A stretch of 64,000 nt of DNA from Escherichia coli O127:H6 str. E2348/69 (GTDB lineage Bacteria; Pseudomonadota; Gammaproteobacteria; Enterobacterales; Enterobacteriaceae). The translations under genes were made by a program, and so were the position numbers. The stretch's first letter is position 1. Each line of letters begins with the position of its first letter. The DNA lies in assembly GCF_000026545.1 (NCBI RefSeq), contig NC_011601.1; one strand, given 5' to 3'. Of the stretch, positions 3,644 through 45,541 are shown one piece after another. Under the pieces are notes generated by a model. That model ran no database searches. It saw only the letters and a program-made list of their open reading frames with translations, and was not told the origin of the DNA.

Positions 3644-4603
3644 TTGTTTCCATTTCGTCGTAACGTTCTTGCATTTGCCGCTCTGTTGGCGCTCTCCTCC
3701 CCCGTAATTGCTGGCAAACTTGCCATCGTCATTGATGATTTTGGGTATCGCCCGCACAACGAAAACCAGGTGCTGGCGATGCCTTCCGCTATCTCCGTTG
3801 CGGTATTACCCGATTCACCACACGCCAGAGAGATGGCGACCAAAGCACATAACAGCGGTCACGAAGTGTTGATTCATCTACCGATGGCACCACTGAGTAA
3901 ACAGCCGCTGGAGAAAAATACGCTACGCCCGGAGATGAGCAGCGACGAAATTGAGCGCATTATTCGTAGTGCGGTCAATAACGTGCCCTATGCCGTGGGG
4001 ATCAATAACCACATGGGCAGCAAGATGACCTCTAACCTGTTTGGTATGCAGAAAGTGATGCAGGCGCTGGAGCGTTACAATCTTTACTTCCTCGACAGCG
4101 TAACCATCGGTAATACCCAGGCGATGCGCGCCGCGCAAGGCACTGGCGTGAAGGTGATCAAACGGAAGGTGTTCCTCGACGATTCGCAGAACGAAGCGGA
4201 CATCCGTGTGCAATTTAATCGCGCAATTGATCTGGCGCGTCGCAACGGTTCAACCATTGCCATTGGGCATCCTCACCCTTCAACGGTACGCGTGCTACAA
4301 CAGATGGTTTATAACCTGCCGCCAGACATTACGCTGGTGAAAGCCAGCAGCTTGTTGAATGAACCGCAGGTTGATACGTCTACACCGCCGAAAAACACTG
4401 TGCCCGACACACCGCGTAATCCATTCCGTGGCGTGAAGCTGTGCAAACCGAAGAAGCCGCTGGAACCTGTTTATGCTAATCGCTTCTTTGAAGTATTAAG
4501 CGAAAGCATCAGCCAGAGCACGCTGATCGTTTACTTCCAGCATCAGTGGCAAGGCTGGGGCAAACAGCCCGAAGCGGCAAAACTTAACGCTAGCGCAAAT
4601 TAA
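3644..4603 (+). CDS. yibQ: Divergent polysaccharide deacetylase family protein YibQ
   Basis: 319-aa ORF directly downstream of envC with signal peptide; synteny. Confidence 0.82.
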   Translation: MFPFRRNVLAFAALLALSSPVIAGKLAIVIDDFGYRPHNENQVLAMPSAISVAVLPDSPHAREMATKAHNSGHEVLIHLPMAPLSKQPLEKNTLRPEMSSDEIERIIRSAVNNVPYAVGINNHMGSKMTSNLFGMQKVMQALERYNLYFLDSVTIGNTQAMRAAQGTGVKVIKRKVFLDDSQNEADIRVQFNRAIDLARRNGSTIAIGHPHPSTVRVLQQMVYNLPPDITLVKASSLLNEPQVDTSTPPKNTVPDTPRNPFRGVKLCKPKKPLEPVYANRFFEVLSESISQSTLIVYFQHQWQGWGKQPEAAKLNASAN

Positions 4604-9249: not shown

Positions 9250-10296
9250 ATGAAAATACTGGTGATCGGCCCGTCTTGGGTTGGCGACATGATGATGTCG
9301 CAAAGTCTCTATCGCACGCTCCAGGCGCGCTATCCCCAGGCGATAATCGACGTGATGGCACCGGCCTGGTGCCGTCCGTTATTATCGCGGATGCCGGAAG
9401 TTAACGAAGCCATCCCTATGCCCCTCGGTCACGGGGCGCTGGAAATCGGCGAACGCCGCAAGCTGGGTCATAGTCTGCGCGAAAAACGCTACGACCGTGC
9501 CTACGTCTTACCCAACTCCTTCAAATCCGCGTTAGTGCCTTTCTTCGCGGGGATCCCTCATCGCACCGGCTGGCGCGGTGAAATGCGCTACGGTTTACTC
9601 AACGATGTGCGCGTGCTCGATAAAGAAGCCTGGCCGCTAATGGTGGAACGCTATGTTGCGCTGGCCTATGACAAAGGCGTAATGCGTACCGCACAAGATC
9701 TACCAAAACCGCTGTTATGGCCGCAGTTGCAGGTGAGCGAAGGTGAAAAATCATATACCTGTAATCAATTTTCGCTTTCATCAGAACGTCCGATGATTGG
9801 TTTTTGCCCGGGGGCGGAGTTTGGTCCGGCAAAACGCTGGCCACACTACCACTATGCTGAGCTGGCAAAGCAGCTGATTGATGAAGGTTATCAGGTGGTT
9901 CTGTTTGGCTCGGCGAAAGATCATGAAGCGGGCAATGAGATTCTTGCCGCTTTGAATACCGAGCAGCAGGCATGGTGCCGGAACCTGGCGGGGGAAACAC
10001 AGCTTGATCAAGCAGTTATCCTGATTGCAGCCTGTAAAGCCATTGTCACTAACGATTCTGGCCTGATGCACGTTGCGGCGGCGCTCAATCGTCCGCTGGT
10101 TGCCCTGTATGGTCCGAGTAGCCCGGACTTCACACCGCCGCTATCCCATAAAGCGCGTGTGATCCGCCTGATTACCGGCTATCACAAAGTGCGTAAAGGT
10201 GACGCTGCGGAGGGTTATCACCAGAGCTTGATCGACATTACTCCCCAGCGCGTACTGGAAGAACTCAACGCGCTATTGTTACAAGAGGAAGCCTGA
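9250..10296 (+). CDS. waaF: LPS heptosyltransferase II
   Basis: 348-aa ORF; GT9 heptosyltransferase; recognised WaaF. Confidence 0.95.
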   Translation: MKILVIGPSWVGDMMMSQSLYRTLQARYPQAIIDVMAPAWCRPLLSRMPEVNEAIPMPLGHGALEIGERRKLGHSLREKRYDRAYVLPNSFKSALVPFFAGIPHRTGWRGEMRYGLLNDVRVLDKEAWPLMVERYVALAYDKGVMRTAQDLPKPLLWPQLQVSEGEKSYTCNQFSLSSERPMIGFCPGAEFGPAKRWPHYHYAELAKQLIDEGYQVVLFGSAKDHEAGNEILAALNTEQQAWCRNLAGETQLDQAVILIAACKAIVTNDSGLMHVAAALNRPLVALYGPSSPDFTPPLSHKARVIRLITGYHKVRKGDAAEGYHQSLIDITPQRVLEELNALLLQEEA

Positions 10297-29503: not shown

Positions 29504-30463
29504 TTACCATACCACCAGCATTCGCTTTACACCCTCCCTCGCCTGTTTAAAACCCTCATCCTCAGGATTGATTTGCAATAACCAGTTTATTCTTCCCTGC
29601 AAAGCATAAAGATACGCCGTTGCCTGTGCATGAAGATCGCCAGAAGAATCAAGCTCACCACGACGACTAAGATGCGAAATGACGCCATATTTTTGGCACA
29701 AATGTACTTCCTGACGCAGTGCCCTCCGCACTTCGCGGGCGAGTTGTGGTTTGTGATTAACAACAATCCCGGTTACTTGCTGGCGCTTACAGGCCGCGAC
29801 CAGGCAGCTTTTGCGTTGATTGAGGTTCAGGCCCAGCTCCGCTAACAATCCGCACACTTTATTTTTAACCAGGCGGGCATTGAAGTGACCGGAAAAGGTC
29901 ATGTCATCGCAGTAGCGGGTGTAGGTAATTCCCCGAGCCTGACACCATTCCCCTATGCGCTCATCAAAACGGCACATCACAAGATTGGAAATGGCAGGCG
30001 AAGTTGGTGCCCCCTGCGGTAACGCGTCGTTATAGCAACAAAGCCAGGTCAGCATGCTTACCACATTGCGTGGCAACTGGGCCTGGCGAAACACACGCCA
30101 GACCTGTAACCAGCTAATGCTATCGAAAAAGTTTTCGATATCGAGTTTCAGGATCTGCGGCTGTTGGCAGTGAGGCTGCGCATTGCTGACGATTGGGCAA
30201 CCCGGCCGGTAGGCGGTAGCAAAAGGGGAAAGAGGGAATTGTGAAAGGACGTTCTTAAGAATGTTGCGCTGTACGGTTTTGAGCAAGTAATTAGGGGCTA
30301 ACACCACCCGCTGACCGCCGTGACGCTTAGAAAGAATAATCCGTCGGTAATGGCGTGCGGCATGATTACTGAGCGCATACAGCCGCTGTATTTCTTTATC
30401 GGCGCTCCAGCCCGGCGAGCCGAACAAATCAAGCGCCAGAAGGGTTATCCGGGTAGCATCCAT
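29504..30463 (-). CDS. Retron-type reverse transcriptase
   Basis: 319 aa from ATG (ORF track gives 323 aa from an upstream GTG); RT motifs YCDDMTFSG (YxDD) and QGAPTSPAISNL; retron-typical VTG motif (QVTGIVVN); between slmA and pyrE, where K-12 has only a short intergenic palindrome. Confidence 0.85.
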   Translation of the reverse strand: MDATRITLLALDLFGSPGWSADKEIQRLYALSNHAARHYRRIILSKRHGGQRVVLAPNYLLKTVQRNILKNVLSQFPLSPFATAYRPGCPIVSNAQPHCQQPQILKLDIENFFDSISWLQVWRVFRQAQLPRNVVSMLTWLCCYNDALPQGAPTSPAISNLVMCRFDERIGEWCQARGITYTRYCDDMTFSGHFNARLVKNKVCGLLAELGLNLNQRKSCLVAACKRQQVTGIVVNHKPQLAREVRRALRQEVHLCQKYGVISHLSRRGELDSSGDLHAQATAYLYALQGRINWLLQINPEDEGFKQAREGVKRMLVVW

Positions 30464-30469
30464 TCCACT

Positions 30470-30755
30470 CTCCACATCACGGCGACCAAAAGAGGCACCA
30501 ACAGCGGCAATACCCTCAAACTATCCCGAAGGCGCGTAACTGTACTGAGCGCGTCAGCGCGACGTACGCGAAGCGTACTTAAGTACAATGGAGCGACTTT
30601 GGGTATCTGGACAAACTACTGGCGTTAAGTCGGCGACTCGCCGACCCTCCCGGCACAAAAGGCCGGAAACGCTATTGCCACTGCTGGCGAAAGCAGATTA
30701 ACACGATATCTTAAACCGCATCACGCTGCGCACAGTAAAAACCTGCGCAGCGCAT
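30470..30755 (-). ncRNA. Putative retron msr/msd template RNA (boundaries approximate)
   Basis: ~290 bp non-coding region directly upstream of the RT on the same strand, dense in perfect hairpins/palindromes (GTACGCGAAGCGTAC, GTCGGCGACTCGCCGAC, CGCTGCGCA...TGCGCAGCG). Confidence 0.5.
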
Positions 30756-32309: not shown

Positions 32310-33173
32310 ATGATCCGCAGTATGACCGCCTACGCCCGGCGTGAAATCAAGGGTGAATGGGGGAGCGCAACCTGGGAAATGCGCTCGGTAAACCAGCGTT
32401 ATCTGGAAACTTACTTTCGTCTGCCGGAGCAGTTCCGTAGCCTTGAACCTGTCGTTCGTGAGCGTATTCGTTCTCGCCTGACGCGCGGTAAAGTGGAATG
32501 TACCCTGCGCTATGAGCCCGATGTCAGCGCGCAAGGTGAGCTGATCCTCAACGAAAAACTGGCTAAACAGCTGGTAACTGCCGCGAACTGGGTAAAAATG
32601 CAGAGTGACGAAGGGGAAATCAACCCGGTTGATATTCTCCGCTGGCCAGGCGTGATGGCGGCCCAGGAACAGGATCTCGACGCGATTGCCGCTGAAATTC
32701 TCGCGGCGCTGGATGGTACGCTGGACGACTTTATCATCGCGCGCGAAACCGAAGGTCAGGCGCTGAAAGCATTGATCGAGCAGCGTCTGGAAGGCGTGAC
32801 CGCCGAAGTGGTCAAAGTCCGCGCCCACATGCCGGAAATCCTGCAATGGCAGCGTGAGCGTCTGGTGGCTAAGCTGGAAGACGCCCAGGTGCAACTGGAA
32901 AACAACCGTCTGGAGCAGGAGTTGGTTCTGCTGGCACAACGAATTGACGTTGCCGAAGAGTTGGACCGCCTCGAAGCGCATGTTAAAGAGACCTACAACA
33001 TTCTGAAGAAAAAAGAAGCCGTTGGTCGTCGTCTGGACTTTATGATGCAGGAGTTCAACCGCGAGTCGAACACCCTGGCCTCGAAGTCTATCAATGCCGA
33101 AGTGACTAACTCCGCCATTGAGCTGAAAGTGTTGATCGAGCAGATGCGCGAGCAGATTCAGAATATTGAATGA
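32310..33173 (+). CDS. yicC: YicC family stress-induced protein
   Basis: 287-aa ORF; synteny with rph. Confidence 0.9.
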   Translation: MIRSMTAYARREIKGEWGSATWEMRSVNQRYLETYFRLPEQFRSLEPVVRERIRSRLTRGKVECTLRYEPDVSAQGELILNEKLAKQLVTAANWVKMQSDEGEINPVDILRWPGVMAAQEQDLDAIAAEILAALDGTLDDFIIARETEGQALKALIEQRLEGVTAEVVKVRAHMPEILQWQRERLVAKLEDAQVQLENNRLEQELVLLAQRIDVAEELDRLEAHVKETYNILKKKEAVGRRLDFMMQEFNRESNTLASKSINAEVTNSAIELKVLIEQMREQIQNIE

Positions 33174-33212
33174 TTTTGCATGCTGTCGCATGAAATTGCA
33201 AAAATCCATCAT

Positions 33213-33237
33213 AGCCCGCATTTTGCGGGCTTTTTTA
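33213..33237 (+). terminator. Intrinsic terminator of yicC
   Basis: Hairpin AGCCCGC-ATTTT-GCGGGCT followed by a T-run, 40 nt past the yicC stop. Confidence 0.65.
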
Positions 33238-33281
33238 TTTTCATACTGTCGCATATGATTGCATAGCATCGCGCAAAACAT

Positions 33282-33300
33282 TTGTACCCAAGACTGTACC
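33282..33300. repeat. attL core (left copy of the 19-bp direct repeat)
   Basis: TTGTACCCAAGACTGTACC, identical to 44406..44424; 61 bp upstream of the integrase start. Confidence 0.75.
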
Positions 33301-33360
33301 TTTAATAATTTATCCAATTCATTTTGGGTACAAAATGATAGTCAATATTCAGGTGAAACT

Positions 33361-34620
33361 ATGGCAAAGCTGACAGATATCCAAATCAAGTCATGGATTA
33401 AGGCAGGAGAACGCTTCGAGGGGCGCTCTGACGGCAACGGGCTATACCTTCGCTATCGAGTGGGGGATAAAGTGCCTGTATGGCGTTTTCGATATCAGTT
33501 CGCTGGGAAATCACGGGTAATGCTTATTGGATCTTATAGCGAAATATCCCTTTCCAAAGCACGGGAAATAGCCAAGGAATTATCCGCACGTGTAGCCCTG
33601 GGCTTCGATGTCGCCGGGGAAAAGAAAGCGCGAAAAGCGGCTGCTATAGAAAAGATGGAGCGGGAGAAAAACGCGCTTCGCGTGTCAGAGCTAGCAACCG
33701 AGTATTTCGAACGGCAGATTTTGGGACGCTGGAAACATCCCGATCTTCTGCGCCGGAGAATCGATAAGGATATCAACCCACATATTGGCAACATGAAGAT
33801 AGAGGACGTAAAACCCCGTCATATTGATGCGATGCTACAGAGCGTTGTTGATCGTGGCGCTCCAACCGTAGCTAATGACGTTCTGCGCTGGACTAAACGC
33901 ATATTCGATTATGCTATCAAGCGTCATGCACTGGAATTAAACCCAGCTGGAGCATTTGATCTGTCAGACGCTGGCGGGCAGGAAAGTAGCCGTATGCGCT
34001 GGCTGACCCGTGAAGAACTTATACGTTTTTTCCAAGCTATGCGCACTGCAAAAGGATTCAGCCGCGAGAACGAGCTGACCATGAAGCTAATCCTCTGCCT
34101 GTGTTGTCGCAAAATGGAGCTGTGCGGTGCTCAGTGGGATGAATTCGACCTTGATGAAGCAGTGTGGCATCTACCAGCAGAACGCGTTAAAAACGGCGAC
34201 GCTATTGATATACCACTACCTCCACCTGCGGTTGGTTGGTTGAGAGAGCTTCGCACTATCGCGGGCAGTGGGAGTAAATGGGTTCTCCCCGCGCGGAAGA
34301 TGCAACACCGCATGATTCCCCACATTCAGGAAAGCACACTCCCAGTGGCGCTGGCAAAAGTACGCCGCGAAATGCCAGAAGTACCAAACTTCACAATTCA
34401 CGATTTCAGGCGTACCGCCCGCACCCATTTAGCGGCGTTGGGTGTCGATCCCGTAGTCGCAGAACGTTGCCTGAATCACCGCATTAAAGGCGTTGAGGGT
34501 ATCTACAACCGCCACCAGTACTTTGAAGAACGACGGGCAGCCCTGGAACTGTGGGCGGGGCTTCTGGTTTCGCTTGAACGAGGGGAAAACTACAATGTTA
34601 TTCCTTTATCTAAAATATAA
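33361..34620 (+). CDS. int: Tyrosine-type site-specific integrase (P4-like)
   Basis: ORF 33259..34620 trimmed to MAKLTDIQIKSW (419 aa); catalytic region HDFRRTARTHL and C-terminal Tyr region (GIYNRHQY). Confidence 0.9.
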   Translation: MAKLTDIQIKSWIKAGERFEGRSDGNGLYLRYRVGDKVPVWRFRYQFAGKSRVMLIGSYSEISLSKAREIAKELSARVALGFDVAGEKKARKAAAIEKMEREKNALRVSELATEYFERQILGRWKHPDLLRRRIDKDINPHIGNMKIEDVKPRHIDAMLQSVVDRGAPTVANDVLRWTKRIFDYAIKRHALELNPAGAFDLSDAGGQESSRMRWLTREELIRFFQAMRTAKGFSRENELTMKLILCLCCRKMELCGAQWDEFDLDEAVWHLPAERVKNGDAIDIPLPPPAVGWLRELRTIAGSGSKWVLPARKMQHRMIPHIQESTLPVALAKVRREMPEVPNFTIHDFRRTARTHLAALGVDPVVAERCLNHRIKGVEGIYNRHQYFEERRAALELWAGLLVSLERGENYNVIPLSKI

Positions 34621-34636
34621 AAGTTTTGTTTGAAGG

Positions 34637-34739
34637 TATTCACCCTATTCACCTTTTTAATTAACTTCATGATTTTAAATAATAAAAAAGGGTGAATACT
34701 TACAGTAAAACTAATCACCTTAGTATTCACCTGTTCACC
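34637..34739. repeat. Cluster of five TATTCACC/TGTTCACC 8-mers (putative recombinase arm-type or regulator sites)
   Basis: TATTCACC at 34637, 34646 and 34724; TGTTCACC at 34732; inverted copy GGTGAATA at 34691; directly downstream of int. Confidence 0.5.
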
Positions 34740-34817
34740 TTCTAAAGCTGCTGTGGCTGCTCCCCTTGCCCGAAAACACGCCAGCCACCAGCGTTAAAAA
34801 AAACTACAAAAATCATC

Positions 34818-34839
34818 ATCGTACAGATCTGTACGATGA
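34818..34839. promoter_or_regulatory. Perfect 22-bp palindrome, putative operator
   Basis: CATCGTACAGATCTGTACGATG in the non-coding region between int and the cargo operon. Confidence 0.4.
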
Positions 34840-35123
34840 CGCCAGCACTCACCCTACAAAACAACCTAACTTATTGATTTCAAAAGTAGAGAAAATCTGC
34901 TTTATGCCACTAGCTCGCACCCGTCCCCAAAAAGAAAAAGCCCGCGCTGGAGACGCACGGGCTTTTGGGTACCGATAACCATGTTTGGAATCAACTCATT
35001 GAGTTCTGACCTCAATTTGCATGTTATCACAAGAAAAACACATTGTAATAATTGCAACAACGAATATCATCATTGCATATAATGAAACATAAATATCCGA
35101 TAGAACATACTGAGGTCTGACCG

Positions 35124-35675
35124 ATGCAAGATATTACAAACATCGCAGTGACTGGCGAAGATGGCGTGGTGACGTATGCCGACGGCAGTAAAGAGGAGTT
35201 CCAGTGCAGCGGAACCGTTGCGACCATCATTGCAAGTCTTGCAACGACACTCGAGAAAGAACGCAAAATGCGCATCGCCACCGGCGACCGCCTGCGCCGC
35301 ATGTACACCCGCGACAGTGATATGATTTCCCGCGGTTTGAATGGCACGTCTGCTACTTCCACGGCACCGACAGCAATGAATGCTGAGTTCATGCGTCTGG
35401 TACGTGCCGTAGCGCCGAAATACGATTCAGCACTGCCCGACGCCGACCCGCGCATCGTTGCGCTCGATGTGCTGCGCTACGCCCCTGCTGAGGCGTTCAG
35501 CGCCGTACACCCTACCCCAATGTCAGAAATCCAGCTGGATCAGGCTATCGATATACTCGAGCAGGTTGGCGACTACATGAAAGCAAACAATATCGCTCCG
35601 AAAATAATTTCTACAGGAGACGCAATCCGCAGCATCAATGCTGACAACGCCACCTTCTGGGGCAAAAAACACTAA
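35124..35675 (+). CDS. Hypothetical protein (island cargo, operon gene 1)
   Basis: 183-aa ORF with no recognised domain; first of four co-directional, tightly spaced ORFs. Confidence 0.6.
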   Translation: MQDITNIAVTGEDGVVTYADGSKEEFQCSGTVATIIASLATTLEKERKMRIATGDRLRRMYTRDSDMISRGLNGTSATSTAPTAMNAEFMRLVRAVAPKYDSALPDADPRIVALDVLRYAPAEAFSAVHPTPMSEIQLDQAIDILEQVGDYMKANNIAPKIISTGDAIRSINADNATFWGKKH

Positions 35676-35688
35676 AGAGATATGAAGC

Positions 35689-35877
35689 ATGTCTATCTAT
35701 GACCCGAAATTAGCCGCAGGCAACCCACAGCGCGCCCACCGCCCAATGCTGACCCGTCAGGATCTTGAAACGGCAAAGGCACGCAATAACTTCGATCGCC
35801 AGAGTCGCAACCTGCAGCAACTCAACGAATCAAATGCACGGTTCTGGAGTGAACAGAATGAGAAAGCCAAACGTTAA
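35689..35877 (+). CDS. Hypothetical small protein (operon gene 2)
   Basis: 62-aa ORF 14 bp after gene 1. Confidence 0.45.
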   Translation: MSIYDPKLAAGNPQRAHRPMLTRQDLETAKARNNFDRQSRNLQQLNESNARFWSEQNEKAKR

Positions 35878-36034
35878 GCCGGTCCTGCTGTCCGCCGAGC
35901 AGATGCAGGCCATACGCAACATTCAGGAACGTGAACGCCAGCGCTCCAATCTCGGCGTCGCTCCCACCGTTCACCAGATTGCCCGCGGCCTCATGGCTAA
36001 GGCTCTGGCCTCACTGGCAAGCGAGGGCGCGTAA
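35858..36034 (+). CDS. Hypothetical small protein (operon gene 3; start uncertain)
   Basis: ORF track gives 35765..36034; trimmed to ATG 35858, which has GGAG 9 nt upstream; stop overlaps the next start (TAATG). Confidence 0.35.
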   Translation: MRKPNVKPVLLSAEQMQAIRNIQERERQRSNLGVAPTVHQIARGLMAKALASLASEGA

Positions 36035-36765
36035 TGGGCGCCATTCACCAGATATATGAGCAGGAAATGTTCTATAACTGGATAGGCGATGGTAAACGAT
36101 GTGTAGCATTCCACGAAGCGGGCCATGCAGTAGCCGCATGGCTTATTCGCTTAGATATGCAGGTTATCGCCATTATGGATGAATCCGGCTACGTTGCTGG
36201 CGAACATGTACATGAAGCCCAGTGTTTGGGCGTTGTTAAACACGGCATAATCCACAGCCACGATCTCAGGCGTTTGCGGGAGAGTAAATCTGGTGTAGTT
36301 GGGCACGATGGCAAAGTTATCCCTTTCATACGCTACTACGCGGAAGGTATAAAGCGCGATGCAACAAAGGCCGCTTTTGTAGCCCTCGCTGGACCAGTAA
36401 GCGAAGCCATTTACGAAAATAACGAAATTTTCAATATAAAGTATTCACTCCCTCACCGCTATGACATGGCTAACGTAAATGACATGCTCGATTTAATATG
36501 TGCCACGGATAAGCGAATTAACAGGAAGTTAATGCTTTCTAAACTTGTTGAAAAGACCAAATTCCTCATGACTCAATACTGGCCGGAAGTAGGAAAAATA
36601 GCGCATTTGCTTGAGCGGGATAACATTGTTAATGGCCGCGATGTTAGCTCGCTAATCGGCCTCAACGTCATTGACCGGGCAACGCCATTTTTGGTATCTG
36701 ACTTGAGCAGTACATTTGCTCATCTCCCGTACTCGTCCCTGCCTCCGAATGAATTAGCAACTTGA
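36034..36765 (+). CDS. FtsH-like (M41-type) zinc metallopeptidase-domain protein lacking ATPase and membrane modules
   Basis: 243 aa; HEAGH zinc-binding motif (AFHEAGHAVAAW) and downstream LAGPVSEAIY segment resembling the FtsH protease domain; no Walker motifs. Confidence 0.65.
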   Translation: MGAIHQIYEQEMFYNWIGDGKRCVAFHEAGHAVAAWLIRLDMQVIAIMDESGYVAGEHVHEAQCLGVVKHGIIHSHDLRRLRESKSGVVGHDGKVIPFIRYYAEGIKRDATKAAFVALAGPVSEAIYENNEIFNIKYSLPHRYDMANVNDMLDLICATDKRINRKLMLSKLVEKTKFLMTQYWPEVGKIAHLLERDNIVNGRDVSSLIGLNVIDRATPFLVSDLSSTFAHLPYSSLPPNELAT

Positions 36766-36776
36766 AGACAGTAAAG

Positions 36777-36803
36777 TAGCCATGCATTTAACACGCATGG
36801 CTA
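36777..36803. terminator. Hairpin between convergent cargo operons (putative bidirectional terminator)
   Basis: 9-bp perfect stem TAGCCATGC / GCATGGCTA with a 9-nt loop, between the stops at 36765 (+) and 36813 (-). Confidence 0.45.
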
Positions 36804-36812
36804 TGTGAACAT

Positions 36813-38036
36813 TTAAGAATTAGAGCGCTTAGGCGATCGCGTAAATTGCACTAAAGCCCCTTTATGATCGTTAGCCTGCACATCACGATGCTCAACCAAC
36901 ATAGATTTTAATTTTGCCAGATGCACAACAGCAGCCTTCTTGCCAGTCAGGTACCCCTCGGGCAAACCAGCAATCATTTCCACATCAATAGCAGATAAAC
37001 CTGCGAATGCAGCAAGCCGTTCAACTGAAATGATTCCAGACGATGCCAGCAATTCAATAGTACGTTTCAACAAACGTGGTTTTTCAGGCTCACGATAATC
37101 ATCTCCCGGCTCTGATTTCGCTCCCCAACGTGCTGAACGACGCTTATAAAGATTTTGTTTCTCTTCTTCCGTAATAATATGCAGCACATGTAAACGCATG
37201 ATACTTGCCGCAACGGAAATACCATAGCGTTGTTTAATTAAAAGCAAGCTATCTAATGTTACCGGGGTCCTAATTTCTTCGGCAAATGTCTCAGCAGGAA
37301 GCAGCAGTGCTCCCGCAAATTTATGAGCCTGACTTTCCTTCAGCTTATAACGTTCGGCTTCGAGTTCGTTGCCAACATAGCGGTGAAGGATCAGATGACC
37401 AATTTCGTGAGCAAGGTCAAATCTGCTACGAAAAGCATTACCTTTATCTGAAGAGAGGAGAACAAAAGGAACACCTAAAGTCTCACTCCAGGCAGAAAGC
37501 CCTTCAATCTGCGCAACGCCTGTTTCTTCTCTAATAACGATAATACCATTACTCTCTGCGGCTAAAGCAAGATCCGGTATTTCCTTTGTACCAAGATTCC
37601 AAAGAGCACGGCACTCATTAGCAGCGTCTTCAATATCTGCATCACTAATTTCATCAATGTTTGTAAAGCTACGACGCGGTAGTTTTAGCTCCGGCAGATC
37701 TACAAACTCAGTCAGCTTAGTAACTAACTCATTAGCCCAATGGATTCGAGTTTCTAACATTGCTCGTGCAGCTACATGAGCTGATGCATTGCTTCTGAAC
37801 AGAGGCTTTGACATCCCCTTCAACAGAGGGCGCGTAAACCATTCAGGTGTAACATTTACGACAGTGGCCAGACGTTCTAAAGCCTCAGACTCTGGAGCCT
37901 GTTGACCGGAACGCCATTTGCTAATGGTTGCTGGTGATACACCCACCATAGTAGCTAATTGAGTTTGTGATAGCCGCCGGGCGGCTAGTACCTGTGCTAA
38001 CCTGCCCGGTTGAAATTCGGCGACGCCTCGGCTCAT
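36813..38036 (-). CDS. Fused HTH-XRE / ImmA-IrrE-type (M78-like) zinc metallopeptidase protein
   Basis: 407 aa; N-terminal XRE helix-turn-helix (LSQTQLATMVGVSPATISKWRSG); central HExxH motif (LAHEIGHLILH); start overlaps the upstream gene stop by 4 bp. Confidence 0.8.
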   Translation of the reverse strand: MSRGVAEFQPGRLAQVLAARRLSQTQLATMVGVSPATISKWRSGQQAPESEALERLATVVNVTPEWFTRPLLKGMSKPLFRSNASAHVAARAMLETRIHWANELVTKLTEFVDLPELKLPRRSFTNIDEISDADIEDAANECRALWNLGTKEIPDLALAAESNGIIVIREETGVAQIEGLSAWSETLGVPFVLLSSDKGNAFRSRFDLAHEIGHLILHRYVGNELEAERYKLKESQAHKFAGALLLPAETFAEEIRTPVTLDSLLLIKQRYGISVAASIMRLHVLHIITEEEKQNLYKRRSARWGAKSEPGDDYREPEKPRLLKRTIELLASSGIISVERLAAFAGLSAIDVEMIAGLPEGYLTGKKAAVVHLAKLKSMLVEHRDVQANDHKGALVQFTRSPKRSNS

Positions 38037-38680
38037 ACATTATCTTCCTCGGTTCCATCTTTTCTGATAATGCCCCTTTTGAGCCCAGGGAATGCATTAT
38101 CTTCTTGGGACGGAACTACATCATATCGGGTTAAAAAAAGTTCAAGTGGCTCATGAAAAACCCAGCGCTTCCCATCAGAACTTGGTACAACAAGCTCTAT
38201 AGACATCGGAGCTTCAGGCTGAATCTGCAACGAACCGGAAAAACGGCATACTACGAACAGTGTAGCTTTTGGCACATCAGAACCATCGGAGAATAAATCC
38301 GGTTGCACCATTTTTTCCACAAACACGTTCTCAGAAATGAGTTCTTGCTTACGTTTGCTACGGAATAATCTCTTCCACTGGTTATCATTGTAGCTTTCAC
38401 GAACAATCGTGAATATACCACTATGGCCTTCTACAATACGGTTACCACGCAGCTTTCCAGGATTACAACCGTTGGCCTCAAACACCTCATAAATAGTTTC
38501 ATTCAGGTTTAAATGACGATCATAACCAAGCGCGGTCGATCTGTGATCTAGCTTCTTCTTTTGAGCATAATCGTAAGAACGCTTTGATGCCGCGTAAATC
38601 GCGTCAGAAAGGGCCATGAAGAGTTGTTTTGAAACATTCTGAACGATGAGATCTGCCACTTTGGATTTTTTCACGACCAT
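38033..38680 (-). CDS. Hypothetical protein, co-operonic with the HTH-peptidase gene
   Basis: 215-aa ORF; AGGAA just upstream of the ATG; no recognised domain. Confidence 0.65.
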   Translation of the reverse strand: MVVKKSKVADLIVQNVSKQLFMALSDAIYAASKRSYDYAQKKKLDHRSTALGYDRHLNLNETIYEVFEANGCNPGKLRGNRIVEGHSGIFTIVRESYNDNQWKRLFRSKRKQELISENVFVEKMVQPDLFSDGSDVPKATLFVVCRFSGSLQIQPEAPMSIELVVPSSDGKRWVFHEPLELFLTRYDVVPSQEDNAFPGLKRGIIRKDGTEEDNV

Positions 38681-39209
38681 TTCCTATCACTGTCACTGAT
38701 AGCCGTGATTTTATATCAGTATTTTTTCGTGTGTCCATAACGCAATCAATTATTTTTTCCTTTGTCAGCAAGAATTATATAAAAAGCACTATCATGACAG
38801 GATTTGGGCCACTAACCTTTCACAGACTCTTGAAGTCCTAGAAAAAAGCAATGGCACAAGGTGTCCTTGCCGGGAGAAAAATCATCTGGCTACCAGCAAC
38901 CTTATAGATTCCAGATCAACGTAATATCAAAGTAAAACGTCCATTTCCGGTACCATATTTGGTCATTACGACGGGGGAAACTTATACCCACTGCTGCCCC
39001 ATCGTCAGCGCCGACAGGGACCTATGCCGCAAGGTATAAGGCAAAATTGGCATTTTCGCTATTCCCCCTGCCCGTATTTTTTGGCTTACTGGAATTTCTC
39101 TATCTAACACAATGAACTTGAGGCTATTCCGACAGGGAGAAAAGCGATCTACGCCTGACCGCCTGCCTCAGCAATCATCCAGGCAAGTACGTGTGTAAGG
39201 CTAACGCGA

Positions 39210-39890
39210 ATGAGTGATTTTTATTCCCCTCTACCAAGCTATGATCTTGTCCGGGCAGCGGAGATGCTGACTGATAAGGGGGCAAATTGTACCGGTAACG
39301 ATTTATTGGAACTATGGAACCAAGGCGTTATCGAGTTGTGTTTTTCTCTGCCGGACTACATTGCTTGTGAAGATGTTAATTTTCCCGGGCATGGTCACAG
39401 CATTTTGTTATCCGTGGATCCGATTAGCTTCAACCTTTTCTGGCTAAATGTTGATTACCCACCGAACTTAAATGCTAACTTTTCTGTGAAAGAATATGGC
39501 TCAGATAGTGAATTCCATGAGCAGTCCCTATGGATACCAACAGAACCGCACTACAACACTCACCATGATAACGGGGAAGGGCTTTGCGAAGCGTTAAGGA
39601 ATACTTATGGCCGGGAAAATTTACGAATACCAGGTGTCGAATTGCAAAAGGTTTGGCGCTTTTTGATCGGTCAGCCTTATGAAAAAAAGCCAACGCCTGA
39701 GCGTATCACCGCTAAGCAATGCCGCTTTATCGTCGCATTACTCAGATCGTATAACCTGACTGACGATGATTTTAAGGGGAGCATTAGGGACCTGAGAATT
39801 AAGATATCTAACCGGATCCCTTCAATCGGTGATCCTGAAATCGATGATAATACCCTTACTGACTGGCTGAAGAAGGGAGGGGTTCGGTAG
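39210..39890 (+). CDS. Hypothetical protein (island cargo, orphan)
   Basis: 226-aa ORF with no recognised domain; divergent from the 38680 operon. Confidence 0.6.
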   Translation: MSDFYSPLPSYDLVRAAEMLTDKGANCTGNDLLELWNQGVIELCFSLPDYIACEDVNFPGHGHSILLSVDPISFNLFWLNVDYPPNLNANFSVKEYGSDSEFHEQSLWIPTEPHYNTHHDNGEGLCEALRNTYGRENLRIPGVELQKVWRFLIGQPYEKKPTPERITAKQCRFIVALLRSYNLTDDDFKGSIRDLRIKISNRIPSIGDPEIDDNTLTDWLKKGGVR

Positions 39891-39992
39891 CTGAGTTTTC
39901 ATAACTCCGATGAGTTTTCAATAACTCCCCCACCCGTAACCACCTACCCCGTAGCCTTGCGATTACCTTCTCACTCAATAGCAGGTAATCGC

Positions 39993-40205
39993 ATGAAATC
40001 GCAAACTTTCACCTTTCCTACCAATGGCAACGCACGAGCCAAACAAGTGGCGCACTATCTTGGAGTGCATATCAGCACCGTATGGCGCTATGCAAAACGT
40101 CCTGATTTTCCAAAACCCCACCAGTTAACCGACGGCGTGACCGTCTTTGACGCCGCAGCTATTCGCCAATGGAACAAGCAAAAAACCGGGGGTGAGAATG
40201 CTTAA
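39993..40205 (+). CDS. alpA: AlpA-family phage transcriptional regulator / excisionase-like protein
   Basis: ORF 39957..40205 trimmed to MKSQTFTF (70 aa); HTH segment AKQVAHYLGVHISTVWRYAKRPDFPKP typical of AlpA/Vis. Confidence 0.7.
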   Translation: MKSQTFTFPTNGNARAKQVAHYLGVHISTVWRYAKRPDFPKPHQLTDGVTVFDAAAIRQWNKQKTGGENA

Positions 40206-40259
40206 CGCGACCGTGAGCACACCCTGCACGACAGCCGTTCGATCTCCATTGTTGGCGGG

Positions 40260-40454
40260 TCAGGCTTTCGGCTCAATACCCAGCCGCTGGAGTTCTTTGC
40301 GCCCCAAGGTTTTCATCCAATTAGCTAAACTCATACCTGCATCTCGTGCGGCGGCCTCGAATTGCTCTTTCAATTCTGGGGCGATCCTCACTTGGAAAGC
40401 TGGTGCCTTTCCCCTGCCTTTGGGCTGTTTATCACGCTGTATTACTGTTGACAT
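40260..40454 (-). CDS. Putative ribbon-helix-helix DNA-binding protein
   Basis: ORF 40260..40547 trimmed to MSTVIQRD (64 aa); beta-strand plus two-helix pattern (FQVRIAPELKEQFEAAARDAGMSLANWM). Confidence 0.45.
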   Translation of the reverse strand: MSTVIQRDKQPKGRGKAPAFQVRIAPELKEQFEAAARDAGMSLANWMKTLGRKELQRLGIEPKA

Positions 40455-40588
40455 GTATGTACCTATTAAACTAAGATTCAAATCAATAGGTACGCACCTT
40501 AACATGTTAAGGTCAGAAAAGACAACGCCCCGTAGTGCTCGCAACACATACGGGGCGTCTAACCAACAACGTTACGGAGACTAACGCT

Positions 40589-40789
40589 ATGGCTAAGCCG
40601 CAGTGTACCCAAACTCACCCCAAATATCAGTATCGTTTTATGGCGCTCGATCGCGCTGACCGCCAGGCAAAACCCTGCAAAATCATTGTTGAGGCCACCA
40701 GCGAGCATGAAGCACGTAAGGTGTTGGCACCTCACTACATCCTGTCACTGTCCGCCGTTTTGCCAGTTCAGGAGGTGAGCCATGTTTAA
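40589..40789 (+). CDS. Hypothetical protein (replication-module operon)
   Basis: ORF 40535..40789 trimmed to ATG 40589, which follows GGAGA; 66 aa. Confidence 0.4.
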   Translation: MAKPQCTQTHPKYQYRFMALDRADRQAKPCKIIVEATSEHEARKVLAPHYILSLSAVLPVQEVSHV

Positions 40790-40976
40790 TGTCATTGTCA
40801 CGGTCACCTATCACTTTTCGGGAACGATCCGTCGTTTTGCTATTCCGGAACGTTTCAATAATCGTGAGCTCGCAGAGAAAGCGGCGCAGCAGTTAACCCA
40901 TACCAGCTATCTGGATGATGGAGTGAGCAGAATTGTGACCCACGCGGCGGAAGTAGTGGAGGTGCGCCATGTATGA
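40782..40976 (+). CDS. Hypothetical protein (replication-module operon)
   Basis: 64-aa ORF whose start overlaps the upstream stop. Confidence 0.4.
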   Translation: MFNVIVTVTYHFSGTIRRFAIPERFNNRELAEKAAQQLTHTSYLDDGVSRIVTHAAEVVEVRHV

Positions 40977-41157
40977 CGCCTACCTGAACCCAAAGGACGC
41001 ACTCCGTCCGATCGCCGTTGCACTCGAGGCTGCGCAGTTTATCGCGCTTGACCCGGAGAATACCGATTTAGCCCATGAGCTGATCGCCTGGGCACTTGAA
41101 ACAGCCGCGCGTGCCTCAGCTGCGCAACGTAACACCCCGGAGGTGGACAATGCTTAA
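40969..41157 (+). CDS. Hypothetical protein (replication-module operon)
   Basis: 62-aa ORF whose start overlaps the upstream stop. Confidence 0.4.
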   Translation: MYDAYLNPKDALRPIAVALEAAQFIALDPENTDLAHELIAWALETAARASAAQRNTPEVDNA

Positions 41158-41458
41158 TCTCAATACATGGAATCTTTTCACGCTGCCGCTGAACGGTGGC
41201 GCAGCTGAGACAGCGCCGGACGATCTGCGTCTGCTGGCCGCTGTGGGGGACGAGGCTCGCAACAACTACCTGCGCGGTGTAAGCGCCATCGGCAATCTGA
41301 TCTTCTGGGCATGTGATAACCCCAACTACACCGACCATCAAGCTGACCTGCCAGCGCTGGGCGCATTCCTGAAACATACCGCTGATATGGCGCGCGCTGC
41401 CGAATTCATGGCAGGACATCTGGACTCACTGGCTGACGGCAAAGAGGGAGGCAAATAA
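41150..41458 (+). CDS. Hypothetical protein (replication-module operon)
   Basis: ORF 41096..41458 trimmed to ATG 41150, which follows GGAGGTGG; 102 aa. Confidence 0.45.
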   Translation: MLNLNTWNLFTLPLNGGAAETAPDDLRLLAAVGDEARNNYLRGVSAIGNLIFWACDNPNYTDHQADLPALGAFLKHTADMARAAEFMAGHLDSLADGKEGGK

Positions 41459-41679
41459 TGCCACGCAAACATCGCTCATCAAGCAACCTGATCAAATTAA
41501 TGGAACGCCAGAAAGGTATAGGGCGCGACGATATCCAGATCGCAGATAATCGCCCTACATTCATGCCGTACGAGCCGAACGGAACCTACGCTACAAACCG
41601 CCATACCCGCCGTATGCTACGCAAGCTCCACGGCATCCAGGCAAAAAGAATGTGTGATCTGAAAGGAGGTCAGAAATGA
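41458..41679 (+). CDS. Hypothetical protein (replication-module operon)
   Basis: 73-aa ORF; stop overlaps the primase start. Confidence 0.45.
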   Translation: MPRKHRSSSNLIKLMERQKGIGRDDIQIADNRPTFMPYEPNGTYATNRHTRRMLRKLHGIQAKRMCDLKGGQK

Positions 41680-44090
41680 GTGGATTCGATCACCTGATGG
41701 AGCAGGGGCAGAAACGCACCCCTGCTCGTTTTACTGCAAATAGCTTTTCTGACCTGTGCAACGCTATTCTATCGCATCGTGTGCAAATTTCCATCACACA
41801 GGAAATGACGGATGAAGAACGGCGCAAAGAAAAGCAGAAACTGTACTGGTTCTCGGCAACTACCCAGCAGGACGGGCAGCGACGTAAACCCGAAAACATG
41901 GCACCGTGTGCTTTCGGTATGCTGGACATTGACGGCAGCACTCCCGGTGCAATCACAGCACTTGTACAGGTGTTCCGGCGATACTCAATGCTGGTGTACC
42001 AGACGGCCAGCTATACGACGGATGAACCTCGTCTGCGTATTGTGTGCGAGCTTTCCCGAGCGGTTGAATCTGACTACCGCCGAGCGACAGGCGAATCCAT
42101 AGAAACTTTGTTGATGCAGGAGGCTGGATTCTCATTCGCCAGCCTGGCGGATAAGAAAGCACGCTGGGAGAACGGCAGCGATTATGTTGTCTTTGACCGC
42201 AATGTATACGGCGCTCAAAGCTATTGCTACTGTCCACACACTGGAGCGAAAGCCCAGAATTACGCGGGCGCGGTAATCGACGTAGGGGCGTTACCGGAAC
42301 CCGCCCAGCCACCAGCGAAGGCGGCCAAAAGCAAGGCAAAGAAACAGCGCCAGCGTGACGCCGCGGCGGTAATAGATGCTGATTTTGACGATCTGAGCGC
42401 CGGACCGGATAACTTCCTTATCGCCGACCTGCGCAGCGCACTCTGGTTTCCCTCCATGCTGCAAAAGGCATGGGACAATGGGGCGTGGATTGAGCAGGGC
42501 TACCGCCTTGCATCTCTCAAAGGCACCGATTTTGAGGACGACGCGCGGCAACTGTGGGTCGAGTGGTCATTGACCGCAGCGGATGGCTGGCCTGATGAAG
42601 AACTTGATGAAGTCGCGGCACAACGCTGGAATGGTCTCGCCCCTGACAAAACCAGCTATAAAGCTATTTTTACTGATGCTCAGGCGCAGGGGTGGAATAA
42701 TCCGGGCAAATGGCGAGCAAAGGCCGCGTACATTGAGAAAATGGCCCCCAGCACACGCGGTGAACTGCTGGCGCAATATTACGGCAACGTATGCCTGAAA
42801 GCTGATGGCAACATGGTTTATCACTATACCGGGCAGGTGTGGGAGCACATCGCCGATGCCGAGTTGCGCCGCCAGCTTTCGCAGATTTTCAAAGATAACG
42901 GGGTCCCCTTTACACCGTACGAGGTTAAAAGCGCGATTGAGGCTATGGGAATGCTTCTGCCTTTAATGGGAGAAACTCCTCGTAACCTGATTGGCTTTGC
43001 CAACGGCGTTTATGATCTCGAGGCGCAGCGATTCCGCCCCCACTGCCCAGACGATTGGCTGACCAGCCATAACGGCGTTGAATACACGCAGCCGGTTAAA
43101 GGCGAAACCCTGAAAAACAATGCCCCAAACTTCTGGCGCTGGCTGCATCATTCCGCAGGGGGCGACTTCGACAAAATGGAGAGAATCAAAGCCGCTCTGT
43201 ATATGGTGCTGGCAAACCGCTACGACTGGCAACTGTTCATCGAGGTTACCGGTGCTGGTGGCAGTGGTAAAAGCGTGTTCACGGGTATTGCACGTATGCT
43301 GACGGGCGAACTACACGCCACCAGCGGCACAATGGAGGACATGGACACCGCGCGCGAACGCGCATCTTTTGTCGGCAAAAGCCTGATCACCCTACCCGAC
43401 CAAGCAACATATACGGGTTCCGGGCCGGGTATCAAGGCTATAACGGGCGGCGACGTGGTAAGGATCGACCCAAAGCACGAAAAGCCATTCCATACGGTTA
43501 TTCGCGCCGTTGTCATCGCAACAAACAACGAACCTATGCGTTTCACCGAACGACAAGGCGGGATATCGCGGCGCCGGGTTATTTTCCCGTTTAACCATGA
43601 AGTGCCGGAGGCGGAACGTGATCCCCATCTGCTCGATAAAATTAAAGCCGAACTGCCGGTAATCGTCCGTGGTCTGCTGATTGACTTCGAACAGCCAGGC
43701 AAAGCCAAATCGCTACTTATCGCGCAGCGTGATTCAGCGGAAGCGCTGCAGGTGAAGAACGATAACGACCCGATGTATGGCTTTTGCTCTTACCTGCTAG
43801 GTTTGCCGAATCCCGAGGGCATGTACATGGGCGATGGGCGCATGGCGCGAGAGCCACGCATCTACCTCTATCATGCTTATCTGGCCTATCTGGAAGCCTA
43901 CGGTTATCAGAGAACCCCCACCCTACCGAAGTTCAGCGGAGATTTACGGGACACGCTCAAAGCCTTTGGTATTACTCTGGACAGTAAAAAGAGTAAAAAG
44001 GGCAAAAGATATAACGTCAATTTGTCTGACAGGGCACAAGAATGGCTGGGAGAAGACGAACTCTCAGCTGTGCCCGACACATTGCAGTAA
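41676..44090 (+). CDS. P4 alpha-like primase-helicase
   Basis: 804 aa; Walker A GAGGSGKS in the C-terminal half (SF3/D5-type helicase); last gene of a translationally coupled operon. Confidence 0.85.
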   Translation: MSGFDHLMEQGQKRTPARFTANSFSDLCNAILSHRVQISITQEMTDEERRKEKQKLYWFSATTQQDGQRRKPENMAPCAFGMLDIDGSTPGAITALVQVFRRYSMLVYQTASYTTDEPRLRIVCELSRAVESDYRRATGESIETLLMQEAGFSFASLADKKARWENGSDYVVFDRNVYGAQSYCYCPHTGAKAQNYAGAVIDVGALPEPAQPPAKAAKSKAKKQRQRDAAAVIDADFDDLSAGPDNFLIADLRSALWFPSMLQKAWDNGAWIEQGYRLASLKGTDFEDDARQLWVEWSLTAADGWPDEELDEVAAQRWNGLAPDKTSYKAIFTDAQAQGWNNPGKWRAKAAYIEKMAPSTRGELLAQYYGNVCLKADGNMVYHYTGQVWEHIADAELRRQLSQIFKDNGVPFTPYEVKSAIEAMGMLLPLMGETPRNLIGFANGVYDLEAQRFRPHCPDDWLTSHNGVEYTQPVKGETLKNNAPNFWRWLHHSAGGDFDKMERIKAALYMVLANRYDWQLFIEVTGAGGSGKSVFTGIARMLTGELHATSGTMEDMDTARERASFVGKSLITLPDQATYTGSGPGIKAITGGDVVRIDPKHEKPFHTVIRAVVIATNNEPMRFTERQGGISRRRVIFPFNHEVPEAERDPHLLDKIKAELPVIVRGLLIDFEQPGKAKSLLIAQRDSAEALQVKNDNDPMYGFCSYLLGLPNPEGMYMGDGRMAREPRIYLYHAYLAYLEAYGYQRTPTLPKFSGDLRDTLKAFGITLDSKKSKKGKRYNVNLSDRAQEWLGEDELSAVPDTLQ

Positions 44091-44108
44091 CTTGTAAAAA
44101 ATCACCAA

Positions 44109-44133
44109 GAACCCCGTAAATCGGGGTTTTTGT
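44109..44133 (+). terminator. Intrinsic terminator after the primase gene
   Basis: Hairpin ACCCCG-TAAAT-CGGGGT followed by TTTTT, 20 nt past the stop. Confidence 0.6.
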
Positions 44134-44150
44134 CTATTTATTAGTCTGAA

Positions 44151-44255
44151 AGGGTGAACAGGTGCGCATACCTTAACAAAGCTGTTCACTCTAATAATTT
44201 TCTTTAATATCAGTACACTACCCGCAATAAGTGAACAGATGGACGGGGTGAACAC
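44151..44255. repeat. Cluster of GTGAACA motifs near the right island end
   Basis: GGTGAACA at 44153 and 44248, GTGAACAG at 44231, inverted copy TGTTCAC at 44183; related to the left-end TGTTCACC/TATTCACC cluster. Confidence 0.45.
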
Positions 44256-44405
44256 TTCACACCTATAGCGCGAAATATTTTAATATTTGCAGTTGAATTG
44301 CAATCCTTGAAAACAGAAACGCGTAGCAAAACGTAGAGTGCTGAAAAAATTTTGTTGGGGAGCAGTTCAAACTGCATGAGCAATTTTCAAGCACTCCTCT
44401 TTGTC

Positions 44406-44424
44406 TTGTACCCAAGACTGTACC
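44406..44424. repeat. attR core (right copy of the 19-bp direct repeat)
   Basis: TTGTACCCAAGACTGTACC, identical to 33282..33300. Confidence 0.75.
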
Positions 44425-44655
44425 CAATAGAAAAAATAGAAAATAAAAACTCAGCAATAGCAGCGATTGGTTACACTACTCAACATTCAGATTCAACTCG
44501 TAACGCCAATTCTTACTTTTCAGCCTTCACAAATGCCGCCCACTCAAACAGAGCGGCATTTTTCTTCCCCGCAACTTCAATTCTGTTTTGCGTGCCTGCT
44601 CCAGATTTTGCGATGTTTTTTTGCCCAGCGCAGTGAGAACGTGAGATACTCACAA

Positions 44656-44716: not shown

Positions 44717-45541
44717 ATGAACGAACATCATCAACCTTTTGAAGAGATAAAGCTGATTAATGCAAACGGAGCAGAACAATGGTCAGCAAGACAACTTGGG
44801 AAACTACTGGGTTATTCAGAGTATCGTCACTTTATACCTGTATTAACGCGCGCCAAAGAAGCTTGTCTGAATAGTGGTCACACAATTGATGACCATTTCG
44901 AGGAGATCCTCGATATGATCAAAATTGGCTCAAATGCCAAAAGAGCATTAAAAGACATCGTACTCTCCCGCTATGCCTGTTACCTGGTAGTACAAAACGG
45001 CGACCCTGCGAAACCGGTTATTGCGGCAGGGCAAACTTATTTTGCTATCCAGACCCGACGGCAGGAGCTGGCTGACGATGAAGCTTTCAGGCAACTTCGT
45101 GAAGACGAAAAGCGTCTTTTTCTGAGAAATGAGTTGAAAGAACATAACAAACAATTAGTTGAGGCAGCGCAGCAAGCTGGGGTAGCGACAGCTATCGATT
45201 TCGCCATATTTCAGAATCATGGTTACCGGGGGCTGTATGGTGGATTAGATCAGAAAGCCATCCATCAGCGGAAGGGGCTGAAAAAGAGTCAGAAGATCCT
45301 GGATCATATGGGTTCAACAGAACTGGCGGCTAATCTCTTTCGAGCTACCCAAACAGAAGAAAAACTCAAGCGGGATGGCGTGAATTCAAAACAGCAAGCT
45401 AACACCACACACTTTGACGTGGGTCGCAAGGTGAGGCAAACCATTCAGGAACTTGGCGGAACCATGCCTGAGGAGTTGCCGACCCCGCAGGTCAACATCA
45501 AGCAGTTGGAAAACAGTGTAAAAATTACAGAGAAGAAATAG
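44717..45541 (+). CDS. dinD: DNA damage-inducible protein D
   Basis: ORF 44705..45541 trimmed to MNEHHQPFEE (274 aa); LexA box upstream. Confidence 0.85.
   Translation: MNEHHQPFEEIKLINANGAEQWSARQLGKLLGYSEYRHFIPVLTRAKEACLNSGHTIDDHFEEILDMIKIGSNAKRALKDIVLSRYACYLVVQNGDPAKPVIAAGQTYFAIQTRRQELADDEAFRQLREDEKRLFLRNELKEHNKQLVEAAQQAGVATAIDFAIFQNHGYRGLYGGLDQKAIHQRKGLKKSQKILDHMGSTELAANLFRATQTEEKLKRDGVNSKQQANTTHFDVGRKVRQTIQELGGTMPEELPTPQVNIKQLENSVKITEKK

Follow-up and report, generated by a model that had tools for sequence, protein, structure and literature searches.

Octamer clusters in a yicC-associated island of Escherichia coli E2348/69 probably form a P4-style bipartite replication origin

Results

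The island and its genes

We analysed a 64,000-nt window of the Escherichia coli O127:H6 str. E2348/69 chromosome (contig NC_011601.1), which contains an island of ∼11.3 kb at the 3′ end of yicC, between this gene and dinD (Table 1). Compared with an E. coli strain in which the site is empty, the inserted DNA spans positions 33174-44496, and homology resumes at 44497. The island is carried by 17 of 5,426 complete E. coli genomes and supplies the last codons of yicC together with its TGA stop and terminator. A tRNA scan found no tRNA gene, and the island is therefore not tRNA-associated.

From left to right, the island encodes a tyrosine integrase (Int), a Rosmer-type anti-phage pair, a small AlpA-family helix-turn-helix protein, whose orthologues carry the Pfam domain Phage_AlpA, and a primase/helicase. 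It also has an Icd-like gene and several genes without a family match. Within the anti-phage pair, a 407-aa HTH/M78-peptidase protein matched RmrA in PADLOC (E = 3.5e-125), and the 215-aa protein upstream of it matched RmrT (E = 8e-16); the same pair is found in Raoultella and metagenome relatives (L086, L087). An Rfam search returned the int-alpA RNA motif RF02996 (39.4 bits; gathering score 35.8), just upstream of a 226-aa ORF that precedes alpA, and no P4 CI-type RNA. Elsewhere in the window, a reverse transcriptase between slmA and pyrE matched the PADLOC retron model RT_Ec107-like (E = 6e-131); the pyrE-ttk site is a known location of retron Ec107. A JUMPstart RNA (RF01707, 55 bits) upstream of the waaQ operon is expected and ordinary.

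The primase/helicase combines parts of different affinity. It shares 43.7% identity with P4 alpha over residues 314-791, and Pfam recognised D5_N, DUF5906 (the SF3 helicase region) and Pox_D5 in the protein. At the C-terminus, the protein matches the solved origin-binding domain of P4 alpha (PDB 1KA8). The N-terminal ∼350 aa had no Pfam match and are not P4-like. As Pfam recognised no primase domain in this N-terminal third, the name 'primase' goes back to the annotation and to weak PHROG hits. The same region is 54-71% identical to the N-termini of DUF927 proteins from Klebsiella and Salmonella prophages and ∼31% identical to APSE phage P3. Being common to these proteins and unrelated to the primase domain of P4 alpha, it points to domain shuffling between initiator families.

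Table 1. Positions of the features discussed in the text. Positions are those of the window unless another source is named
Feature	Sequence	Position	Strand	Remarks
yicC		32310-33173		left neighbour
dinD		44717-45541		right neighbour
Tyrosine integrase gene int, 419 aa		33361..34620	+	26% identical to P4 Int
Rosmer-type anti-phage pair RmrT/RmrA		36813-38680	-	PADLOC
Small helix-turn-helix gene, AlpA family, excisionase/regulator		39993..40205	+	PHROG 66, E = 1.7e-8
Primase/helicase gene, 804 aa		41676..44090	+	'DNA primase family'; residues 314-791 P4 alpha-like
N-terminal ∼350 aa of primase/helicase		41676-42725		not P4-like
C-terminal winged-helix origin-binding domain, aa 696-791 (by homology)		43761..44048	+	phmmer to PDB 1KA8, E = 6.4e-16
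Left cluster, octamer	TATTCACC	34637-34644	+	letters read
Left cluster, octamer	TATTCACC	34646-34653	+	letters read
Left cluster, tandem pair	TATTCACC c TATTCACC	34637..34653	+	begins 16 nt past int stop
Left cluster, spacer, 37 nt		34654..34690	.	89% A+T, read directly
Left cluster, inverted octamer	GGTGAATA on + strand	34691-34698	-	letters read
Left cluster, degenerate octamer	TAATCACC	34712-34719	+	one mismatch; newly added here
Left cluster, octamer	TATTCACC	34724-34731	+	letters read
Left cluster, octamer	TGTTCACC	34732-34739	+	letters read; abuts the preceding TATTCACC
Right cluster, octamer	GGTGAACA, i.e. TGTTCACC on - strand	44153-44160	-	
Right cluster, octamer	TGTTCACT	44183-44190	+	
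Right cluster, A+T-rich spacer		44191-44229		
Right cluster, octamer	AGTGAACA, i.e. TGTTCACT on - strand	44230-44237	-	
Right cluster, octamer	GGTGAACA, i.e. TGTTCACC on - strand	44247-44254	-	
Conserved element	CCCYTGCCYG(A/G/T)AAA	34759-34795		directly after left cluster
Same element in relatives	CCCYTGCCYG(A/G/T)AAA	L084 2700-2740; L005 2290-2320; L088 285-310; L089 955-975; L090 4520-4540		locus coordinates
Terminator-like hairpin		34814-34841	-	T-tail
Terminator-like hairpin		34936-34966	-	T-tail
Tandem 12-mers, int-proximal candidate arm	TTGTACCCAAGA CTGTACCTTTAA	33282..33305	+	∼108 nt from yicC stop
Inverted 12-mer, candidate arm	TTTGGGTACAAA on + strand	33323..33334	-	26 nt ahead of int ATG
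Tandem 12-mers, other candidate arm	TTGTACCCAAGA CTGTACCCAATA	44406..44429	+	∼55 nt before candidate core
Candidate crossover identity, attL	CAGATTCA	33152..33159	+	3′ end of yicC
Candidate crossover identity, attR	CAGATTCA	44487..44494	+	
19-bp direct repeat, left copy		33282-33300		rejected as att core
19-bp direct repeat, right copy		44406-44424		rejected as att core
TGCA-spacer-TGCA words, left att arm		33174-33262		
TGCA-spacer-TGCA words, right att arm		44285-44390		
TGCA-spacer-TGCA 17-mer		39989-40005		overlaps alpA start
int-alpA RNA motif, RF02996		39117-39184	+	Rfam
Retron-type reverse transcriptase		29504-30475	-	PADLOC
JUMPstart RNA, RF01707		22546-22584	-	
P4 crr, 'cis required region for replication'		4291-4590 (X51522)		just downstream of alpha, beside attP
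P4 origin (ori)		9310-9413 (X51522)		

Two clusters of octamers

The first-pass annotation of this DNA had listed five octamers within ∼100 bp of each other just downstream of int. We found all five and added a degenerate sixth copy, to which full iterons correspond when P4 and relatives are aligned. The tandem pair that opens this left cluster is kept in register in 6 taxa. It is followed by a strongly A+T-rich spacer whose length is conserved among relatives while its sequence drifts, and which we regard as a candidate DNA-unwinding region. A second cluster, which the annotation had placed at the right end, is equally real, with four copies at 44153-44254; it lies 62 nt past the primase stop, after a terminator hairpin and ahead of an att arm, and is kept in register in 9 relatives. 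The accompanying claim that the two clusters sit just inside both junctions needs qualification: the right one is ∼230-340 bp from the right junction, and the left one is ∼1.47 kb from its junction and separated from it by the whole int gene.

The enrichment of the motif was borne out by counting. With 2.9 matches to TRTTCACC expected in the window, 14 were counted, a number not attained in any of 100 shuffles. For a group of five inside 103 bp, the window-wide Poisson probability is ∼1e-9, and 200,000 random placements produced no such group. With the relaxed 7-mer [TC][GA]TTCAC, the left and right clusters were the only ones of at least three copies in the 64-kb window.

Further elements were seen around the left cluster. 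Directly after it, a small G/C hairpin of variable sequence leads into a conserved short element, CCCYTGCCYG(A/G/T)AAA. The element is present in six taxa, even in those with an altered iteron word; it could represent an RNA, a site bound by a protein or a signal for single-strand initiation. Two strong terminator-like hairpins on the minus strand are located between the left cluster and the first annotated cargo gene, a place without annotated genes on that strand. Their role could be to end an unannotated leftward transcript or to shield an origin against read-through transcription.

Comparison with phage P4

P4 alpha reportedly binds type I iterons via its C-terminal domain. By homology, the winged-helix domain of the island primase would be the part of the protein that reads the octamers.

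The P4 entry X51522 annotates 8-mers as 'ori type 1 repeat' both in the origin (ori) and in crr. Their words are TGTTCACC and close variants, TATTCACC among them, and, judged by its letters, the island octamer is this same word. The layout of the left cluster also agrees with P4. Written as strand and offset, its copies lie at +0, +9, -54, +75 (the degenerate copy), +87 and +95, and those of P4 ori, taken in alpha orientation, at +0, +10, -53, +75, +86 and +96, that is, within 1-2 nt. Where the left cluster has its 37-nt spacer, P4 ori has an A+T-rich one of 35 nt. The arrangement of two 8-mers with a 1-nt spacer between them recurs in P4 crr, the corresponding spacer in P4 ori being 2 nt. For the right cluster the series is -0, +30, -77 and -94, and for a P4 crr unit -0, +14, +32, -75 and -84.

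Both clusters were scored by global alignment against P4 ori and each of the two crr units in all orientations. The left one aligned best with the reverse-complemented P4 ori (score 91, z 7.6), while the best crr unit scored 75. The right cluster gave z values of 3-5 in every comparison, for ori and crr alike; its sequence thus shows no clear preference, and its assignment to crr comes from position and orientation. The opposite pairing, left with crr and right with ori, had been our first one and its alignments also looked reasonable; it was dropped after the scoring of all combinations and the comparison of offsets. The better-supported assignment is therefore that the left cluster is, by architecture, the counterpart of P4 ori and the right one corresponds to a single crr unit. 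It is no more than probable, because the ori and crr modules are all built on one core pattern, with a pair of iterons, an A+T spacer and an iteron in inverted orientation.

The backbone of the island is collinear with the integration/replication half of P4, in the order ori, cargo, alpA and icd, alpha, crr, attP, int, ori. As in P4, the order alpha, crr, attP, int is kept, and one cluster follows the terminator of the alpha gene and abuts an att arm, which is the position of crr. There are also differences. P4 crr consists of two 120-bp repeats with 5 iterons each, whereas the island has one crr-like unit with 4. P4 ori lies between vis and sid; the island lacks what P4 has from cII to sid, so that its ori-like cluster directly follows int. 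P4 'type 2' repeats were not seen in the island, and tblastn with P4 proteins detected no counterpart of Cnr, which regulates copy number in P4; the missing Cnr speaks against a P4-type origin. The sequence features of such an origin are nevertheless present: clustered octamers of one family in both orientations (six on the left, four on the right), an A+T-rich spacer of ∼35-37 nt within a cluster at P4-like spacing, two separate candidate cis elements, one of them 3′ of the alpha gene beside an att arm, and a putative initiator with an SF3 helicase and a C-terminal winged helix homologous to P4 alpha.

Integrase and attachment sites

The first-pass annotation had preferred to read the paired clusters as arm-type binding sites for a tyrosine recombinase or excisionase. 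On this reading, Int or AlpA would bind the octamers and shape the attL/attR or attP complex. Arm sites should indeed exist somewhere, since Int has an N-terminal arm-binding domain (Arm-DNA-bind_3 in its Salmonella orthologue). The clusters are found towards the two ends of the island and, as with the arm-type sites of lambda (P/P′) and of P4 attP, their repeats are short, mixed in orientation and close to where the integrated element ends; one annotated arm repeat of P4 even lies ∼450 bp from the core, inside int. However, arm-type sites fall within ∼200 bp of the core and track the integrase family, and the octamers do neither: the left cluster is past the whole int gene and the right one lies outside an arm pair of another kind.

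That pair belongs to a set of TGTACC 12-mers, which, by their sequence and placement, are the likely arm-type sites of Int. The 'attP arm sequence repeats' of P4 in X51522 are 12-mers of the form TTGGGGGCATAA, unlike the octamers, which equal the P4 replication iteron instead. In P4, the att region consists of a pair, 54 nt, a 20-bp core, 113 nt, a second pair, 15 nt and an inverted copy overlapping the int start codon. The 12-mers of the island already fill this geometry, with a pair, ∼54-55 nt, the core, ∼108-110 nt, a pair, ∼18 nt and an inverted copy before the int ATG. Comparison with the arm sites of related integrases, a check suggested together with the arm-site reading, does not support it.

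The two kinds of repeat also part company among relatives. Islands of Erwinia and Tatumella (L039, L041) have an Int 79% identical to that of the island, are inserted at the 3′ end of yicC and carry GTGTACC-type pairs, but have no TRTTCAC cluster after int. Conversely, Xenorhabdus L005 and Providencia L090, whose Int proteins are 72% and 71% identical to P4 Int and 26% to the island Int, are located in tRNA-Leu with GGGGCA-type pairs in P4 geometry, and do have the cluster. In Salmonella L089, Int is 64% identical to the island Int and the iteron word is changed. The arm motif thus follows the Int family, and the octamer cluster does the opposite. This double dissociation and the 1.47-kb distance rule out the arm-site reading for practical purposes, and we regard it as extremely unlikely.

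P4 Int targets tRNA-Leu, whereas the island Int targets the 3′ end of yicC. The crossover is inferred to take place at CAGATTCA, which is found at both junctions; in the Salmonella island both copies of the candidate read CAGATCCA. A simple crossover at CAGATTCA predicts 12 further bases (GAACATTGAATA) at attR, which are absent there. A perfect 19-bp direct repeat was also considered as att core and rejected: the insertion spans 33174-44496, the two Salmonella copies disagree at 3 of the 19 positions, and the repeat is made up of two TGTACC units with a period of 12 nt, laid out as the P4 arm pairs are.

Both att arms contain TGCA-spacer-TGCA words, for example TCGCATGAAATTGCAAA and GCAGTTGAATTGCAA, and a 17-mer that agrees in 16 of 17 bases lies across the start of alpA. 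These words are possible AlpA/Vis-type binding sites, which would link excision control with autoregulation of alpA.

Iterons and primases across relatives

In a scan of one genome per species, we collected 80 loci encoding alpha-like helicase/origin-binding regions. Most of those with enough downstream sequence have 4-11 copies of a lineage-specific 7-mer within ∼300 bp after the primase gene, the types including GTGAACA, GTGAATA, GTATACA, GTAGATA, GTAGGGA, GTGGAGA, CTGAACA and GTGCACA, among others. Identity of the C-terminal 110 aa averaged 71% in pairs of the same iteron type and 42% in pairs of different types, a difference reached in none of 2000 label permutations and uncorrected for shared ancestry. 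Since one cluster always accompanies the primase gene, the protein that reads the iterons would be the primase.

The int-downstream cluster was present in every full-length primase relative with a readable int region, a count that covers the loci whose int region falls within the 10-kb flank (for L086, L087 and L091 it lies beyond). In the Salmonella yicC island (L084, L085), both clusters are identical in layout. The int-downstream cluster was also found in Serratia L088, Xenorhabdus L005, Providencia L090 and Salmonella L089. Salmonella L089 has TGTATACC/TGTACACC in both clusters, and Providencia L090 a mix of TGTGCAC and TGTTCAC in both. The word thus changes in the two clusters together, which suggests that one protein with lineage-specific specificity reads both. 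As to the presence of the motif cluster in related islands, on which the first-pass annotation had made its reading depend, several relatives keep both clusters, and those of Erwinia and Tatumella carry all 11-12 iterons after the primase gene and none after int.

This last arrangement indicates that an int-downstream cluster is not universally required, and it is a point for a rival reading, in which the primase-helicase binds the clusters without their being an origin. The left cluster would then be a copy-number or incompatibility locus, as P1 incA is, that titrates or handcuffs the initiator, or an operator, with int or adjacent cargo genes under the control of the initiator or of another regulator. 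Plasmid copy-control systems typically have two iteron clusters that are set apart. The iteron plasmids P1 (incC/incA), F and R6K share with the island a single initiator and two separated clusters that could pair, but their initiators are of the Rep/RepA type, whereas that of the island is an SF3 helicase fusion. The location of the left cluster between the 3′ end of int and the cargo, with the two minus-strand hairpins after it, is a further point for this reading. Against this, the cluster has the full layout of P4 ori including the A+T-rich spacer, it is kept in register with co-varying iterons in six taxa, and P4 ori and crr are both annotated as replication elements. We therefore consider a copy-control or operator role unlikely and retain the origin as the preferred function.

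Classification of the island

A tblastn search with all P4 proteins gave matches in the island to Int (26%), to the C-terminal portion of alpha (44%) and to the cI/Icd region (45%), and to nothing else; among those without a match were psu, sid, delta, epsilon and cnr. PHROGs likewise returned no sid, delta, psu or epsilon in the larger ORFs, with the small ORFs at 40782-41679 covered partly. P4-like satellites are defined by seven components, int, psu, delta, sid, alpA and epsilon together with alpha (PMC8628076). With int, alpA and alpha (Pox_D5) as the only ones found, the island has fewer than five of the seven and thus falls outside this definition (PMC8628076).

These absences, together with the small number of E. 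coli genomes that carry the island, could mean that a P4-like element has decayed and left the repeats behind as non-functional relics. However, the open reading frames of the primase, of int and of alpA are intact. The E. coli and Salmonella copies of the island differ by ∼9-12% overall, and every iteron has been retained in both clusters. The architecture also persists across genera with compensating iteron changes. We accordingly give the relic explanation very little chance and continue to regard the repeats as probably functional iterons.

For phage-inducible chromosomal islands (PICIs) of Gram-negative bacteria, Fillol-Salom et al. (2018, PMC6092414) describe an ori 3′ of rep, with two iteron sets that flank a region rich in A+T. 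The island has the corresponding layout of int, alpA, pri-rep and, directly 3′ of the replicase gene, an iteron/A+T-rich cluster, and it shares with these PICIs a size of ∼11 kb and the presence of accessory genes. It differs from them by a second, larger iteron cluster after int, and by an iteron sequence and a binding domain that are specifically P4-type. No cos-like similarity to P4 was found by blastn, and neither packaging genes nor cos/pac sites were recognised in the island.

Two relatives carry phage structural genes between the ori-like cluster and alpA, namely homologues of gp7, gp20 and gp16, which are ejection proteins of P22, in Serratia L088 (2161-6667), and tail genes, tape-measure-like and Dit-like, in the metagenomic island L091 (946-5994). 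Such cargo is unusual for satellite-like islands of ∼12 kb.

Discussion

The octamers after int and at the right end of the island are very probably iterons of the island's own initiator and together form its replication origin. The first-pass annotation had offered iterons of an island replication protein as its second choice, and it is this alternative that the data favour: the octamer is the P4 iteron word, the left cluster has the P4 ori architecture, the primase carries a domain homologous to 1KA8, and the clusters co-vary with each other independently of Int.

On the chromosome, the clusters lie at opposite ends of the island; on the excised circle, they would be ∼1.7 kb apart and flank attP and int. 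By analogy with P4, the 804-aa primase/helicase would bind both clusters through its C-terminal winged-helix domain, bridge the left and the right one, melt an A+T-rich spacer, load as an SF3 helicase and prime theta replication. As to the start site, either cluster is about as good a candidate as the other. As the clusters bracket attP and int after excision, the initiator could do more than start replication: by bridging them, it might also join attL and attR and promote excision, or loop out and regulate int on the circle. We consider this additional role quite improbable; if true, the bridging would couple replication initiation mechanically to site-specific recombination.

The kind of element is already known: it is a P4-type ori/crr origin, here in an island family without Sid and Psu, and models of replication and recombination are unchallenged by it. 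For the island of this enteropathogenic E. coli (EPEC) strain, the annotation is corrected, in that the octamers are read as a P4-style bipartite origin and the TGTACC 12-mers as integrase arm sites. More generally, a widespread family of small enterobacterial islands that lack Sid, Psu and Delta appears to retain the ori/crr logic of P4, with the ori placed directly after int and an iteron sequence that shifts in step at both sites. This yields predictions for minimal replicons and for the specificity of their initiators.
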